Assembly: GCA_964462205.1 (NCBI GenBank)
Contig: CAYWWW010000002.1
Location: forward strand, 71,223 to 135,222
Origin: an uncultured Cardiobacteriales bacterium
GTDB taxonomy: Bacteria > Pseudomonadota > Gammaproteobacteria > CAYWWW01
Reading direction: 5' to 3'
DNA length: 64,000 bases
Each line of letters opens with the position of its first letter. The stretch's first letter is position 1. The notes beneath the pieces were generated by a model. That model was not told the DNA's origin. It was given only the letters and a program-made list of their open reading frames with translations, and did no database searches. This document shows, one piece after another, positions 31,156 to 53,662 of the stretch. The position numbers were made by a program, and so were the translations under genes.

Positions 31156-33186
31156 TTATTCAGCGCCGTCCTCTTCCCCTTTGCTACGCTGGACGCTCGG
31201 ACGGTATTTGCGCCGTCGCAAGGGATAACGGCTGTTGCGTTTGCTATCCTCGTTGTCGTTATTCGCAGTCAACTTGGGGCGAATAATCACCGGTGCTTTA
31301 TCAGTTTTTTCGAGTTCGCTGGGATTTTTTTCGTTGGCTTTGTCTTGCTTTTCCAAAGCCTTGCCAGTTTTTTCTGCTGCTGGCGTTTTTTTGCTACCCG
31401 GCAACTGGACAGTTGGCGCTTGGCGTGGGGTGTCACTGAACTGATTTTTTGGCGTTGCTGGACTCGGCGTTGCTTCTACGACCTGTGCTATGGCCGTGGC
31501 TTGGCTTTTTTTCAGTGGTCGCGCAAACCATCTTAGCCAAAAACCTGACCAAAACCCGTAAGTTGCTTTGCTATCCTCTGTATCATTGGCGACGCTGGCC
31601 GTCTCTGCTGCTGGTTTTATGGCGAACAAACCTGGGTTGCTGGTCTGCGAGATATAGGCTTTATTTGGTTGTTGTTCTTTTAACCATTCGTAACTCCCCT
31701 TGCCTTCTGGTGCCGCGCTTACTACAACATCTTTGCTATCAATGTTTTGCAGATGTGGGTTGGGAATAACCAATAACTGTGTCTGGTAAAAACTTTCAAA
31801 TTCTTGAATAGTATGTCTTTTTTCATTCAAGAGATAAGTTGCAACATCCAGAGGTACTTGCGCGGTGATTTTGCCAGGCTTGCTTTCCGACTGCATCGCC
31901 AATTCATGACAGAGACGCAACACATAATCGGCAGAAGATGGCGTGCTGCGCACCCGACCAGAACCGCCACAGCGTGGACAAACAATTTGACTGGTTTCCC
32001 CCAAAGACGGTTGCAAGCGCTGGCGTGACATTTCCAGTAAACCAAAGCGGGAAATGCGACCGACTTGGACGCGGGCACGGTCTTGATACAGCGCTTCTTT
32101 GAGGCGATTTTCGACTTCGCGCTGGTGGCGATTGTCGCTCATATCAATAAAATCAATAACAATCAAGCCGCCAATATCGCGCAAGCGCAGTTGACGGGCG
32201 ATTTCATCTGCCGCTTCCAAGTTGGTATTTAAGGCAGTTTCTTCGATGTCGTTGCCGGCGGTGGCGCGGGCGGAGTTGATGTCAATGGCTACCAAGGCTT
32301 CGGTGTAATCCACGACAATCGAGCCGCCAGACGGCAGTTGAATTTCATGTTGATAGGCGGTTTCAATTTGATTTTCAACGCGAAATTGATTGAATAGCGG
32401 AATTTCCGACTCATAAAAATGCAGTTTTTCGACGCTGTGCGGCATCATGGTCTGCATAAAAGTTTTTGCTTCGGCAAAGCGCTCTGGTTCATCAATAAGA
32501 ATTTCGTCAATATCAGGCCGTAAATAATCGCGTAAGGCGCGAATAATCAGTTTGCTTTCTTGATGAATCAGTGCGGGTTTGCGCGACGGTTTCTGATAAG
32601 CCTCTTCAATGCTTTGCCAAACTTTCAATAAATAATCTAAATCCCATTGGAGCTCTTGTTGATTGCGGCCTACGCCGGCGGTGCGCACGATAATCCCCAT
32701 GCCCTCGGGGATGATAAGGCTCCCCATGATTTCCTTCATGGCTTGGCGGTCTTCGCCTTCGATGCGCCGCGACACGCCACCAGCGCGGGGATTATTCGGC
32801 ATCAATACCAGATAACGTCCAGCCAAACTGACATAAGTCGTCAGCGCAGCACCTTTGTTACCGCGTTCTTCTTTTTCAATTTGAACAATGACTTGCTGAC
32901 CTTCGCTGAGGCTGTCTTTGATCTGGCCACGGACGATATTGCCTTCCCCCTGCAAAAAATTACGGGCGATTTCTTTAAAAGGCAAAAAACCATGGCGTTC
33001 ACCACCATAATCCACAAACGCCGCTTCTAAGCTCGGTTCGATACGGGTGATGGTGCCTTTGTAAATATTGGCTTTTTTTTGTTCTCGACTTAACAGTTCG
33101 GTGTCGAAATCGTAGAGTTTGTCGCCATCCATGATTGCAACCCGAAGTTCTTCGGGATGGGTGGCATTGATTAACATCCGTTTCAT
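31156..33186 (-). CDS. rne: ribonuclease E (short-tail form)
   Basis: 676 aa; N-terminal S1 and catalytic region (MKRMLINAT..); Zn-link motif [10 protein letters not shown]; Arg/Lys-rich C-terminal tail; divergent from rluC as in E. coli. Confidence 0.85.
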
Positions 33187-48561: not shown

Positions 48562-48837
48562 TTAAGCCTCACTTTGACTGATAAAAGTAGCTAAGGCATT
48601 GACTGCTTCCACGGCATCACCACCAAGTGCTTCAATATCAATATGTTCCTCATATTGTCCAGCAAGTTTCATCAATCCCATAATACTTTTGGCATTGGCG
48701 CGTAACGGCGGTTTACCTAACCAAATTTCTGCTGAAAAGCTGCGCGCTAGTGTGGCAATTTTGGCACAGGGTCGCGCATGAAGACCAAGATGATGTCCAA
48801 TTTTTACCTGTTTTTTCACTAACAGCATGAGGGACAA
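48562..48837 (-). CDS. HPr-family phosphocarrier protein (NPr/PtsO-like)
   Basis: His-15 motif GLHARP; Ser-46 region NAKSIMGLM; last gene of the rpoN-ptsN-rapZ cluster. Confidence 0.75.
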   Translation of the reverse strand: MSLMLLVKKQVKIGHHLGLHARPCAKIATLARSFSAEIWLGKPPLRANAKSIMGLMKLAGQYEEHIDIEALGGDAVEAVNALATFISQSEA

Positions 48838-49259
48838 CAGGAATTATCATCAATGCCATTGCGACCACCGGCCAGTGCCAGATGGCTTAATTGATCGAGG
48901 TCGGTAGGAAAATAATTTAAGACGCGCAAGAGCATGGGTAAATTGACCCCGCTGACTAGACGATAATTTTGCGGATTACCAATTTTTTTGACAATATTAC
49001 AAGGAGTTGCACCATAAATGTCAATTAAAATAAGTGTTTTTTTCTCTTTTAAGAGGGAACTTAGATGTTCAATAAATTCAGGAGAATCATTTTGCATTTG
49101 ATAGGAAATGCAATAAACAGGTATTTGATTTTCACCAAAAATAGTTAAGGCAGTATCAAGAAGCGATTGACCGATTTGGCCATGCGTAATTAAAAGAATT
49201 TGTTGGGTATTATCAACTGCCGTCTGTGCGCTGTGTGGCTTCAGCCAGGTTGTGTGCAT
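48819..49259 (-). CDS. PTS EIIA component, mannose/fructose family
   Basis: 146 aa; N-terminal ILLITHGQIG with His as in EIIA-Man; between rapZ and HPr. Confidence 0.6.
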   Translation of the reverse strand: MHTTWLKPHSAQTAVDNTQQILLITHGQIGQSLLDTALTIFGENQIPVYCISYQMQNDSPEFIEHLSSLLKEKKTLILIDIYGATPCNIVKKIGNPQNYRLVSGVNLPMLLRVLNYFPTDLDQLSHLALAGGRNGIDDNSCCPSCC

Positions 49260-50137
49260 GTTGGTAAATCTCGATGTTGTAATAATAAAGAATAACTTGG
49301 CAGCGCTTGTTTTTGAAAAAACGCAAAAAGTTGTTCAGCCGCATATACCGAGCGATGAAAACCACCGCTGCAACCGTAGGAAACTGTTAATAAAGGTCGT
49401 GCGCTATTATTAAAATGCGGAAGCCAGGTTAATAAAAAATTTTGTAAGTCGCTTAACATTGCCTGCATTTCTGAATTTTCTCTAAAAAAATCCTGTACTT
49501 GCGGACTATTTCCTGGTAAATCACGCAGGTGATCTAACCAGTGTGGATTCGGTAAACAACGGAGATCAAAGATATAATCGCTATCCGCAGGTAAGCCATG
49601 CCGATAAGCAAAAGATTGAAAAACCAAGAGCATTTTTCGGTCTGTCTCAGGAATTAAGCGTTCTCTTAACCAATGGCGCAAATCATGTACGCTCATTTCG
49701 CTAGTATCTAATACTAAATCTGCTATAGATTCAATAGGTTCAAGTGTTTTTTCTTCTAAAGTCAGTGCTTGCGTTAAAGCAATCTGTTGGGTTTGCAAGG
49801 GATGTTTGCGGCGGGTATCGGCATAACGTTGTAAGAGATTTTCGTTTTTAGCGCGTAAAAAAATAGTTAAGATATTTAAGTGCGGGTCTTGCCGTAATTG
49901 TTTCAAAATGTTTGGAAAATTTTCCAGTTCACTTAAACCGCTACGGATGTCAATGCCAATAGCAAAACGCTCTAAATGCAATTTCCGATGAAAATTTTCT
50001 TCACAAAGATGCGCAACGGTCACTGCCAATAAACTTAACGGCAGGTTATCAATACTGTAAAAACCATGATCTTCCAGGGTGCGTAGCGCGGCAGATTTGC
50101 CAGCACCAGATAAGCCACTGATTATAAAAAGCTGCAT
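49241..50137 (-). CDS. rapZ: RNase adapter protein RapZ (YhbJ)
   Basis: 298 aa; N-terminal Walker A GLSGAGKS; conserved position after ptsN. Confidence 0.85.
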   Translation of the reverse strand: MQLFIISGLSGAGKSAALRTLEDHGFYSIDNLPLSLLAVTVAHLCEENFHRKLHLERFAIGIDIRSGLSELENFPNILKQLRQDPHLNILTIFLRAKNENLLQRYADTRRKHPLQTQQIALTQALTLEEKTLEPIESIADLVLDTSEMSVHDLRHWLRERLIPETDRKMLLVFQSFAYRHGLPADSDYIFDLRCLPNPHWLDHLRDLPGNSPQVQDFFRENSEMQAMLSDLQNFLLTWLPHFNNSARPLLTVSYGCSGGFHRSVYAAEQLFAFFQKQALPSYSLLLQHRDLPTCTQPG

Positions 50138-50451
50138 AGAGAATTTCCTGAAGTCAATAAGCCGCTATCCAGATGATAAATATGATCAATAGTCGTGATT
50201 GGCGCACAGTAGGCTGCTGGCAGCTTTTGTAGTGCTCCGTTAAAATAGAGATTTTGCCGATTGGCAAGTCCTGGGTCTAGGCCATAATAACGATCACAAA
50301 ATATAAAAATACCAACTAAATCATCGCTAATCAGTTGTGCACCGCGTTGTAACAGTAACCAACTTAACAGCGTTTTACCACTTTCGGCAGCACCAAGTAG
50401 CAAAATTCCACACCCTTGCCAACGCAGAAGATTGCCATGCCGATAAATCAT
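50122..50451 (-). CDS. mini HPr kinase/phosphorylase-like P-loop protein (truncated HprK core)
   Basis: P-loop region GILLLGAAESGKTLLSWLLLQRGAQLISDD aligns with the HprK Walker A region; only about 109-118 aa fit between ptsN and rapZ; start taken as the ATG at 50451, 2 nt after the ptsN stop. Confidence 0.5.
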   Translation of the reverse strand: MIYRHGNLLRWQGCGILLLGAAESGKTLLSWLLLQRGAQLISDDLVGIFIFCDRYYGLDPGLANRQNLYFNGALQKLPAAYCAPITTIDHIYHLDSGLLTSGNSLCSFL

Positions 50452-50453
50452 CT

Positions 50454-50927
50454 TTAAAAGCAACCGGGACATGGCCATTGTGCAAAGATGGCAAGAATAT
50501 CCACTGGTTTTTCAGTTTGTTCCAAATGCTGACGTTGTTGGCTTTGGCTAAAGCCTTCAGCCAGCGCCGCAAAAATTTTCAAGTGTGCTTGCTGTCCTTC
50601 TGTAGAAGGGACGAGCAGCGCAAAAAATTGTTTGGTTAAGCTGTCATCGGTATCGGAAAAGTCACTGATGCCTGGTAAAACTTTGAGATAGGCACCAAGC
50701 GGTTGCTCTATTTTATCAAGACGCGCATGGGGTAAAGCAATGCCGTGGCCAATACCAGTGCTGCCAAGTTTTTCTCTTTGAAACAAGGCTTTAAGAATAC
50801 TTTCAGAAGATTCGCCACAGCCGCTGCTCAATAATTGACTTAATAATTCTAGGCTGCGTTTTTTGCTAGTAATTTGCGATGAGATGACAATGCGCTCAGG
50901 TAATAATAAATCAGCAATGCTTGTCAT
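50454..50927 (-). CDS. ptsN: PTS IIA-Ntr (nitrogen regulatory protein)
   Basis: 157 aa; phosphorylation-site motif GIGHGIALPHAR; immediately downstream of rpoN. Confidence 0.85.
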   Translation of the reverse strand: MTSIADLLLPERIVISSQITSKKRSLELLSQLLSSGCGESSESILKALFQREKLGSTGIGHGIALPHARLDKIEQPLGAYLKVLPGISDFSDTDDSLTKQFFALLVPSTEGQQAHLKIFAALAEGFSQSQQRQHLEQTEKPVDILAIFAQWPCPGCF

Positions 50928-50956
50928 GATAGTAATTTTTTGAAAATTAAATAATT

Positions 50957-52415: not shown

Positions 52416-53156
52416 CTATAATTGAAAGCGTTCACCTAAGTAATACTGTCGCACCGCTGGATTGACAAGTATTTGTTTTTTATCGCCTTCAGCCAAAATC
52501 CGGCCTTGGTAGAGAATATAACTGTAATCACAAATTGCTAAAGTTTCCCGCACGTTATGATCAGTAATCAAGATGCCGATACCTAAATTCCGCAACCGCC
52601 GAATCCAGCCTTGTAACTGTTCCACTGATAAGGGATCAACAGCGGCAAACGGTTCATCTAAAAGCAAAAATTTCGGTTCTATAGCCAAAGCGCGGGCAAA
52701 TTCTAACCGCCGTTTTTCGCCACCCGATAAACGCTGTGCGCTTTGCTCTTGCAAAGCCAAAAGATCAAAGCGTTCTAATAATAACTGACAGCGTTGCTGT
52801 CGTTTTTCCAAAGAGAGTTTTTTATGATGATTTTCTAAGGCTAACAACAAGTTATCTCTAACACTGAGATCGCGAAATAAAGCACTTTCCTGCGATAAAT
52901 AACCAAGTCCCAGACGCGCCCGCGCATACATGGGCAGATGGCGAATATTTTCGTTGTTAAACGTGAGTTGACCGCTATCCGCTGCTAAAGCACCGATCAA
53001 AATTTTGAAAAAAGTCGTCTTGCCTGCACCATTAGGACCTAATAAACCAATCACTTGCCCGCTTTTTACTTCCAGATGCACTTGATTGAGCAAGGTGCGT
53101 CCGGCCAATTGTTTTACCAATGCCGTCGCCTTGAGTTGATGGATTGCGGCAGCCAT
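52416..53156 (-). CDS. lptB: LPS export ABC transporter ATP-binding protein
   Basis: Walker A GPNGAGKTT, ABC signature LSGGEKRR, Walker B LLLDEP; lptCAB-rpoN synteny. Confidence 0.9.
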   Translation of the reverse strand: MAAAIHQLKATALVKQLAGRTLLNQVHLEVKSGQVIGLLGPNGAGKTTFFKILIGALAADSGQLTFNNENIRHLPMYARARLGLGYLSQESALFRDLSVRDNLLLALENHHKKLSLEKRQQRCQLLLERFDLLALQEQSAQRLSGGEKRRLEFARALAIEPKFLLLDEPFAAVDPLSVEQLQGWIRRLRNLGIGILITDHNVRETLAICDYSYILYQGRILAEGDKKQILVNPAVRQYYLGERFQL

Positions 53157-53662
53157 CAGGGGGTAGCACTTGACTTAGGATAGAGCAGCATCTCAATGCC
53201 GCCTTTACCACTGGCTTTAAGACGACTTTGATTTAAATCATAGGTTAAACTTTGGCTGCGCATCTGATTTTTCCCTTGGGATAATTCGGCATCGCCTTCT
53301 AAAATTAAAAGACCACTATCCAGGCGATAGGATAAACGTTTTGCTTGTCCCTGCCATAGACCATCGTTGCTTTGCTGTTGAAAACGCAGCGGATTTCCAT
53401 TGGCTTCCAAGCGACTTGGCTGTTGATTATCAAAAAAAACGATGACTTTGTCCGCGCTTAAACGAAAACTATCCTGGTTAATTTGCACTTTACCGCTATA
53501 AATAGCTTGATTATTTTTTAAGTCAACTTCTAAACTATCAGCTTTAATTTGAATGACTTGCTGACTGAGAAGTGTATCTTGTCCCTGCGCTAAATTAAAA
53601 CCAAAACTTAAAATACATAACATCAACGGCAAAAAAAATAGCTCTATTGGCTTAAAGCGCAT
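53156..53662 (-). CDS. lptA: LPS transport periplasmic protein LptA
   Basis: 168 aa; signal peptide; OstA-like beta-jellyroll pattern; between lptC and lptB. Confidence 0.8.
   Translation of the reverse strand: MRFKPIELFFLPLMLCILSFGFNLAQGQDTLLSQQVIQIKADSLEVDLKNNQAIYSGKVQINQDSFRLSADKVIVFFDNQQPSRLEANGNPLRFQQQSNDGLWQGQAKRLSYRLDSGLLILEGDAELSQGKNQMRSQSLTYDLNQSRLKASGKGGIEMLLYPKSSATP

Follow-up and report, generated by a model that had tools for sequence, protein, structure and literature searches.

What is encoded by the short open reading frame (ORF) that separates ptsN from rapZ in a 64,000-nucleotide stretch of DNA from an uncultured Cardiobacteriales bacterium (contig CAYWWW010000002.1, positions 71,223 to 135,222; this whole stretch is hereafter called the window, and its numbering is used throughout)? 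The same place in other clusters is occupied by hprK, the gene for HPr kinase/phosphorylase (HprK/P), a sensor that links carbon status to the phosphorylation of HPr at Ser46. To our knowledge, the role of proteobacterial HprK/P in the regulatory, nitrogen-related phosphotransferase system (PTS-Ntr) is still poorly understood. An earlier note on the window had described the ORF as a miniature HprK-like P-loop protein and proposed either a decaying hprK or a minimal kinase acting on the adjacent HPr-family protein. We found that the ORF, designated mini-HprK here, is a real gene under purifying selection. It derives from the hprK gene usually located between ptsN and rapZ, shortened from both sides to 109 codons, and its product is the front of the HprK catalytic domain only (approximately 95 of approximately 170 residues).

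The longest version of the ORF (50122-50478, minus strand) comprises 118 codons, and an internal ATG at 50451 gives 109. In one orthologue, L001, an in-frame stop codon lies within the 5' extension; consequently, the start common to the orthologues is codon 10 (ATG in three lineages and TTG in L002), which makes 109 amino acids (aa) the most likely length of the protein. The 118-aa start was thereby ruled out as the shared start, which favours the lower end of the range of 109-118 aa given in the earlier note. The other measurements of that note were all reproduced: 316 nucleotides (nt) lie between ptsN and rapZ, the ptsN stop ends at 50454, 2 nt ahead of the ATG, rapZ starts 16 nt inside the mini-HprK ORF, and the spacer between rpoN and ptsN is 29 nt.

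Subsequently, the relationship of mini-HprK to HprK was examined by profile and structure comparison. The Pfam family Hpr_kinase_C, PF07475, matched with E = 4.5e-8 and 33.3 bits, which is exactly the gathering cutoff, and the match covered only profile positions 5-54 of 171. The top match in the PDB was the HprK-like protein of Coxiella burnetii (3tqf; E = 7.9e-6), with an ungapped alignment that covers ORF residues 14-107 of the 118-aa form, or residues 5-98 in the 109-aa numbering used below; HprK/P of L. casei, S. xylosus, and M. pneumoniae followed. When a profile of the four orthologues alone was compared by hhalign with a profile of full-length and alphaproteobacterial HprKs, a probability of 99.3% (E = 5e-20) was obtained over 68 columns, and the alignment ran to residue 62. 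This alignment spans both the HG motif and the Asp-Asp hairpin, which excludes a generic P-loop protein unrelated to HprK, the outcome that the earlier note had regarded as refuting its reading. The description in the earlier note of an ORF without the N-terminal domain and without a large part of the C-terminal core was borne out. Furthermore, an AlphaFold2 (AF2) model based on a 97-sequence alignment had a mean predicted local distance difference test (pLDDT) score of 72 and a predicted template modelling score of 0.66; by residue, the pLDDT was 77-87 for 1-60, 56-58 for 61-80, and below 50 for 97-109. The model, which leans on the HprK alignment, superposed on approximately the first half of the catalytic domains of L. 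casei HprK/P and Coxiella 3tqf, with template modelling scores of 0.73 (query) and 0.49 (target).

The catalytic site of L. casei HprK/P consists of His140, Lys161, Asp179 (the proton acceptor/donor), and Arg245; Ser162 and Glu204 are Mg ligands, residues 203-212 are required for catalysis, and the K3 loop (266-271) is required for dephosphorylation (PMC9399212). Two subunits take part in holding HPr: one touches it with strand A (135-140), the P-loop, and the D-E hairpin (174-185), and the neighbouring subunit does so with Arg245 and its C-terminal helix (PMC9399212). Residues of mini-HprK were mapped by adding 135 to obtain the L. casei number. The recognisable core was found to begin with strand A, which carries the HG motif, and to continue through the P-loop and helix 1 to the D-E (Asp-Asp) hairpin, and His5, Gly20, Ser24, Gly25, Lys26, Thr27, Asp43, and Asp44 were invariant in the four orthologues. 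The Walker A region noticed earlier (GAAESGKT..LISDD) is thus present, and the suggested inspection of catalytic residues beyond the P-loop showed that the equivalents of His140 and Asp178/Asp179 are kept, whereas Glu204 and Arg245 are gone. In mini-HprK, Leu68 replaces Glu204 and Phe70 replaces Arg206, and the remnant of the signature differs among the orthologues (LYFQGT, LYLNAQ, and LCLHGQ). The Arg245 loop, the K3 loop, both C-terminal helices, and the N-terminal domain of approximately 130 aa are not present. In the 97-sequence alignment (A3), which is dominated by short alphaproteobacterial HprKs, at least 90% of the sequences have the catalytic Glu and the later Arg, both of which are absent from mini-HprK.

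The 47 residues beyond the core form a lineage-specific tail, SGLLTSGNSLCSFL, without detectable sequence similarity to HprK. The tail contains no Arg and ends at approximately L. casei residue 236-250, before any equivalent of Arg245. Its YYGLDPGLA motif, which is specific to the lineage, is invariant in the orthologues. The C-terminal TSGNSLCSFL is also invariant and spans an AGGAAA stretch and the rapZ start codon, the last 16 nt of the tail overlapping rapZ; the last 11 residues are probably invariant because the AGGAAA of rapZ is embedded there. One position of the tail differed in the window: Asn64 (50260-50262) gives LANRQ, and LAYRQ was observed in all the other orthologues, including a 99%-identical sequence of the European Nucleotide Archive (P0001). 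The motif is otherwise conserved, and the change to Asn64 is specific to the strain.

Mini-HprK was also compared with the models and features by which HprK proteins are assigned. The full-length family model TIGR00679 gave 33.8 bits against a cutoff of 240, and NF003883, the NCBIfam model of the Coxiella-type 'HPr kinase/phosphorylase-related protein', gave 29.2 bits against 252, over model positions 18-61 of 189 only (31.5 bits for the 109-aa orthologue P0004). For the HprK-related kinases A/B, both with a cutoff of 200 bits, TIGR04355 gave 11 bits (E = 0.16) and TIGR04352 was unreported. Walker A, (G/A)xxxxGK(S/T), and His140 with Asp178/Asp179 were found, as was the genomic association with ptsN, rapZ, the enzyme IIA of the mannose family (EIIA(Man)), and an HPr with a Ser-46 site. 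The hEhRGhGhh signature with Glu204, the Arg245/K3/C-terminal helix region, and Hpr_kinase_N were not found. The truncated alphaproteobacterial type did not fit either, as the signature and the Arg are missing and the context is ptsN-rapZ, not chvG. Taken together, mini-HprK falls outside the HprK/P, alpha-type, and Coxiella-type classes yet clearly descends from the family.

A search of 5.8 billion proteins returned only four close-relative clusters (78-99% identity, 109-118 aa), and an exhaustive search of representatives returned a single 50%-identity cluster. In the four orthologues, the length was kept and the gene order was identical to that of the window; L001 originates from a 44 °C pink/white/grey Yellowstone mat (PMC9600594), and L002 and L026 are from Logan assemblies. 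The ratio of nonsynonymous to synonymous substitution rates (dN/dS) was determined by the Nei-Gojobori method over non-overlapping codons. The whole of mini-HprK showed a dN/dS of 0.09-0.24 at a dS of 0.31-2.4, near the values for ptsN (0.09-0.14); those for rapZ and NPr were 0.03-0.12 and approximately 0.04, respectively. The dN/dS was 0.13-0.17 for residues 1-60 and 0.17-0.37 for residues 61-103 of the tail. Fisher tests of pN versus pS gave p values down to 1e-16, variable sites fell on codon positions 1, 2, and 3 in the numbers 33, 23, and 62, and all the other frames were broken by 2-12 stops.

Four explanations of the ORF were weighed on these data. Decay of hprK, the first suggestion of the earlier note, would account for the loss of approximately two thirds of the ancestral gene, for the degenerate signature, and for the fact that one relative (L040, described below) has lost hprK wholly. 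However, four lineages separated by a dS of 0.3-2.4 share an unbroken frame and the same length, the dN/dS is that of a constrained gene, and no remnants of the deleted hprK parts were found. Because a low dN/dS together with a kept frame and length is incompatible with a decaying pseudogene, this explanation was rejected, and we leave it next to no probability. The ORF might instead have no protein function, its translation merely coupling ptsN to rapZ or its sequence carrying the ribosome-binding site of rapZ. Such a role would suit the tight packing, with a 2-nt gap on one side and a 16-nt overlap on the other, and the invariant TSGNSLCSFL over AGGAAA and the rapZ start codon. It would also suit L040, which does without any gene here and has ptsN and rapZ 2 nt apart. 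The low dN/dS along the ORF argues against it: pure coupling would allow a dN/dS near 1, whereas the whole ORF is constrained, and most of all its P-loop core, which is distant from both junctions (Fisher p 1e-4 to 1e-14 for the core). We therefore regard a role in coupling alone as improbable.

The two remaining explanations both assume a functional protein. The invariant elements that have been retained are the parts that bind phosphate and nucleotide, and they are also the surfaces that touch HPr around Ser46 in one subunit of HprK/P. The elements that have been lost are the Mg-binding Glu204 with the signature, the Arg245 acting in trans, the K3 loop of phosphorolysis, and the C-terminal helices of HPr docking and oligomerisation. 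Since the binding elements were kept and those for transfer and docking were lost, we favour a ligand-binding regulator, tentatively and with a confidence that stops somewhat short of even: mini-HprK may be a small, pseudokinase-like regulatory partner of NPr or another PTS-Ntr protein that binds ATP, pyrophosphate (PPi), or inorganic phosphate (Pi). It would modulate phosphoryl flow via binding, not via efficient canonical Ser phosphorylation or phosphorolysis, and a candidate partner is the NPr encoded two genes downstream. Several observations weigh against this proposal. The invariant His, Lys, Thr, and Asp-Asp would be equally expected of an active enzyme; the NPr of the operon keeps the canonical Ser-46 motif, which fits continued Ser phosphorylation; the Coxiella protein also has neither Glu204 nor Arg206, so that their loss may not kill activity in this branch; and AF2 modelling from the four orthologues alone gave a pLDDT of only 52, so that the fold of the tail gains no independent support.

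Some of the same observations would suit a genuine minimal HPr(Ser) kinase, which would phosphorylate NPr at Ser48 with ATP or PPi, other residues or a partner replacing Glu204 and Arg245. The equivalents of His140, Lys161, Ser/Thr162, and Asp178/179 are invariant, including the catalytic base Asp44; the elements that touch HPr (strand A, the P-loop, and the D-E hairpin) are kept; NPr retains NAKSIMGLM with Ser48; the invariant YYGLDPGLA could provide new ligands; and in alphaproteobacteria a truncated HprK actively phosphorylates NPr (PMC2937029). The strict retention of Asp44 and of the Lys-Thr pair, together with the Ser-46 motif of NPr, is the principal argument for this reading. However, the active truncated forms retain ExRGxG and the later Arg (at least 90% of A3), both of which are lost here, along with the K3 loop and the C-terminal helix by which the neighbouring subunit docks HPr. 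In addition, the signature remnant varies across the orthologues, and the 33.8 bits obtained with TIGR00679 are far from the equivalog cutoff. Kinase activity of mini-HprK is structurally doubtful, and we consider a minimal kinase unlikely, although it comes next in probability after the regulator.

Next, the surroundings of mini-HprK were examined. On the minus strand, the gene order is lptA-lptB-rpoN-ptsN-mini-HprK-rapZ-EIIA(Man)-HPr/NPr; the positions of these genes and of the parts of mini-HprK are given in Table 1. Besides the overlap of mini-HprK and rapZ, there are overlaps of 19 nt between rapZ and EIIA(Man) and of 10 nt between EIIA(Man) and NPr. A scan of the cluster for promoters and consensus terminators found nothing above shuffle expectation that would split the operon and no convincing internal terminator. 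From these overlaps and the terminator scan, the cluster looks like one translationally coupled operon. NPr has His17 in GLHARP and, as its Ser-46-type site, Ser48 in NAKSIMGLM, which is kept in the orthologues. In tblastn searches of the window, no second hprK, split-off C-terminal half of HprK, hpf, or enzyme I (EI) was detected.

Table 1 Features of the mini-HprK locus and mini-HprK ORFs found elsewhere. Positions are those of the window except in the last four rows.
Feature	Position	Strand	Evidence or remark
lptA	53156-53662	minus	
lptB	52416-53156	minus	LptB 313.8 bits vs cutoff 240
rpoN (sigma-54), 463 aa	50957-52348	minus	TIGR02395 375.5 bits vs cutoff 277
rpoN-ptsN spacer, 29 nt	50928-50956	minus	hpf slot in canonical clusters
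ptsN (EIIA-Ntr), 157 aa	50454-50927	minus	PTS_EIIA_2 E = 7.6e-26; TIGR01419 E = 4e-27
mini-HprK coding sequence, 109 aa	50122-50451	minus	ORF translation, orthologues, dN/dS
Residues 1-62, recognisable HprK core (approximately L. casei 136-197)	50266-50451	minus	hhalign, Pfam, AF2
His5-Gly6 (= His140 of L. casei HprK/P)	50434-50439	minus	alignments; invariant in 4 orthologues
Walker A GAAESGKT, residues 20-27 (Lys26 = Lys161, Thr27 = Ser162)	50371-50394	minus	translation
Asp43-Asp44, DD of LISDD (= Asp178/Asp179)	50320-50325	minus	invariant in 97 sequences and orthologues
Degenerate signature remnant LYFNGALQKL (vs L. casei 203-212 LEIRGLGIID)	50221-50250	minus	alignments
Residues 63-109, lineage-specific tail	50125-50265	minus	hhalign stops at residue 62
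rapZ, 298 aa	49241-50137	minus	NF003828 300.6 bits vs cutoff 244
EIIA of mannose family, 146 aa	48819-49259	minus	Pfam EIIA-man E = 1.5e-11
HPr/NPr phosphocarrier, 88 aa	48562-48828	minus	Pfam PTS-HPr E = 1.4e-23
mini-HprK ORF elsewhere, L033	680-1003		
mini-HprK ORF elsewhere, L034	487-819		
mini-HprK ORF elsewhere, L035	5001-5360		
mini-HprK ORF elsewhere, L037	279-593		

Several further features of the cluster were observed. No recognisable Shine-Dalgarno sequence was found before the start of ptsN (50928-50956) or mini-HprK (50452-50470); for rapZ, AGGAAA sits within the mini-HprK codons Ser-Gly-Asn, just upstream of the rapZ start. PtsN ends with a Cys-x-x-Cys motif, QWPCPGCF (50454-50480, minus strand). 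The corresponding ends in the orthologues (L001, L002, and L026) are WPCPDCF, WPCPSCF, and WPCRECF, and the end of the L038 PtsN differs; the motif is kept even though the overlapping mini-HprK frame is unused in L001. The tail of EIIA(Man) (48819-48880) is Cys-rich, with SCCPSCC in the window and SWHSSCF or SWHASCF in the orthologues, and its N-terminal extension of approximately 20 residues overlaps the 3' end of rapZ. Enterobacterial RapZ is an adaptor of RNase E; a 676-aa protein of the RNase E/G family is encoded at 31156-33186, 16 kb from the cluster, and an Rfam scan of the window returned two tRNAs only and no GlmY/GlmZ-like RNA.

RapZ was used to place the host among its relatives. 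Within three clusters of the 5.8 billion proteins RapZ is at least 91% identical, and the identity then drops to 47% for the next match; from this drop, the host is judged to be an isolated, divergent gammaproteobacterial lineage. The RapZ of L040 tops the matches outside the lineage at 47%, and several others, including that of L041, are equally close. A scan of a species-representative genome collection for close relatives returned alphaproteobacterial short HprKs only, and of two metagenome scans with RapZ the first returned nothing and the second two distant loci only. Three relatives with 42-47% RapZ identity (L038, L041, and L040) were compared at the locus. L038 has rpoN-hpf-ptsN-hprK(315 aa)-rapZ-EIIA(Man)-NPr-EI and L041 has rpoN-hpf-ptsN-hprK(312 aa)-rapZ-HPr-EI, in line with the statement of the earlier note that such clusters normally hold an hprK of about 310 aa. 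The Xanthomonas arrangement matches that of L038 and L041, and the full-length HprK there is an active Ser kinase (PMC6916182). In contrast, L040 (3519-4855) has rpoN-ptsN-rapZ-EIIA(Man) with 2-nt junctions, contains neither hpf nor hprK, and has an empty mini-HprK slot. The window lineage is thus intermediate between the full and the empty hprK state, yet its form has been stably maintained.

The position between rpoN and ptsN is occupied by hpf in L038, L041, and E. coli. As the earlier note had pointed out, hpf is lacking here: only the short spacer is left, and when four different HPF proteins were used as tblastn queries, no hpf was detected in the 64-kb window or in the L001 and L002 loci, although the gene may sit elsewhere in the genome. 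The absence is not peculiar to this lineage, since hpf is also missing from the cluster of L040, one of the nearest sampled relatives.

An exhaustive search also revealed other mini-HprK ORFs (P0007, P0018, P0029, and P0035) of 104-119 aa on unrelated metagenomic contigs. P0029 lies in hpf-mini-EIIA(Man)-HPr, P0018 in hpf-ptsN-mini, and P0007 and P0035 in ptsN-mini-EIIA(Man). They directly follow ptsN or hpf and usually precede EIIA(Man)-HPr, whereas, unlike in the window, rapZ is not adjacent. All four stop at approximately the same structural point as mini-HprK, past the strand that pairs with IDHIYHLD, and carry Tyr or His in place of Glu204; they share only 31-37% identity with mini-HprK and score far under the curated HprK cutoffs. 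On the 1-kb contig L034, the ptsN upstream of the mini-HprK ORF is split into ORFs of 99 and 60 aa (31-509), which reflects either an erroneous frameshift or decay of the gene. In a neighbour-joining tree of 95 columns, the window clade grouped with P0018 (119 aa) and P0021 (145 aa) at 38% bootstrap, and the other miniature forms fell outside; the tree would be compatible with both a common origin and independent truncation, and does not separate them. The miniature HprK architecture is recurrent, and the literature searched describes only the truncated alphaproteobacterial and Coxiella short forms (PMC2405797, PMC2937029).

An HprK stump that has been selected for a long time shows how little of the enzyme is needed to be still of biological value, and with mini-HprK nature provides a test case for the question whether HprK-type proteins can work through binding instead of catalysis. 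It is conceivable, but we think it rather doubtful, that proteins of approximately 105-120 aa with only the front of the HprK catalytic domain constitute an unrecognised PTS-Ntr class in gammaproteobacteria-like lineages. Its members would be either the smallest known P-loop protein Ser kinases, which would manage with neither Glu204 nor Arg245 nor the C-terminal helix, or new pseudokinase-type regulators that read ATP, PPi, or Pi and gate NPr. The finding is incremental, and only proof of activity or of a new partner would make it field-changing. It also calls for caution in annotation, as some pipelines name such ORFs 'serine kinase of HPr protein' though the curated cutoffs are not reached.

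Finally, mini-HprK was compared with the known HprK systems. Full-length proteobacterial HprK/P, such as that of Xanthomonas campestris (PMC6916182), is encoded in the same ptsN-rapZ slot, within a cluster of the order rpoN-hpf-ptsN-hprK-rapZ-EIIA(Man)-ptsH-ptsI, and strand A, the HG motif, Walker A, helix 1, and the Asp-Asp hairpin are homologous to those of the structural archetype, L. casei HprK/P (1JB1/1KKL); however, full-length HprK/P has 312-325 aa and mini-HprK 109 aa. The Coxiella burnetii protein 3TQF is, like mini-HprK, gammaproteobacterial and devoid of the N-terminal domain (PMC2405797). It also has neither Glu204 nor Arg206, with YILITGIGII where HprK/P has LLEIRGLGII, but its chain, 181 residues as deposited and compared here as far as residue 110, keeps the GxGII part of the signature, unlike mini-HprK. 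Our literature search found no report of kinase activity or function for this protein. For the truncated alphaproteobacterial HprKs, that of Brucella melitensis phosphorylates NPr at Ser61, and the N-terminal domain is dispensable in the known truncated forms (PMC2937029). These proteins are approximately 140-175 aa, 30-60 residues longer than mini-HprK, keep the ExRGxG signature and the downstream Arg, and are encoded after chvI-chvG, whereas mini-HprK lies between ptsN and rapZ. Nevertheless, they resemble mini-HprK in having neither the N-terminal domain nor the C-terminal conserved region, and they are likewise encoded with EIIA(Man) and NPr in a purely regulatory PTS.

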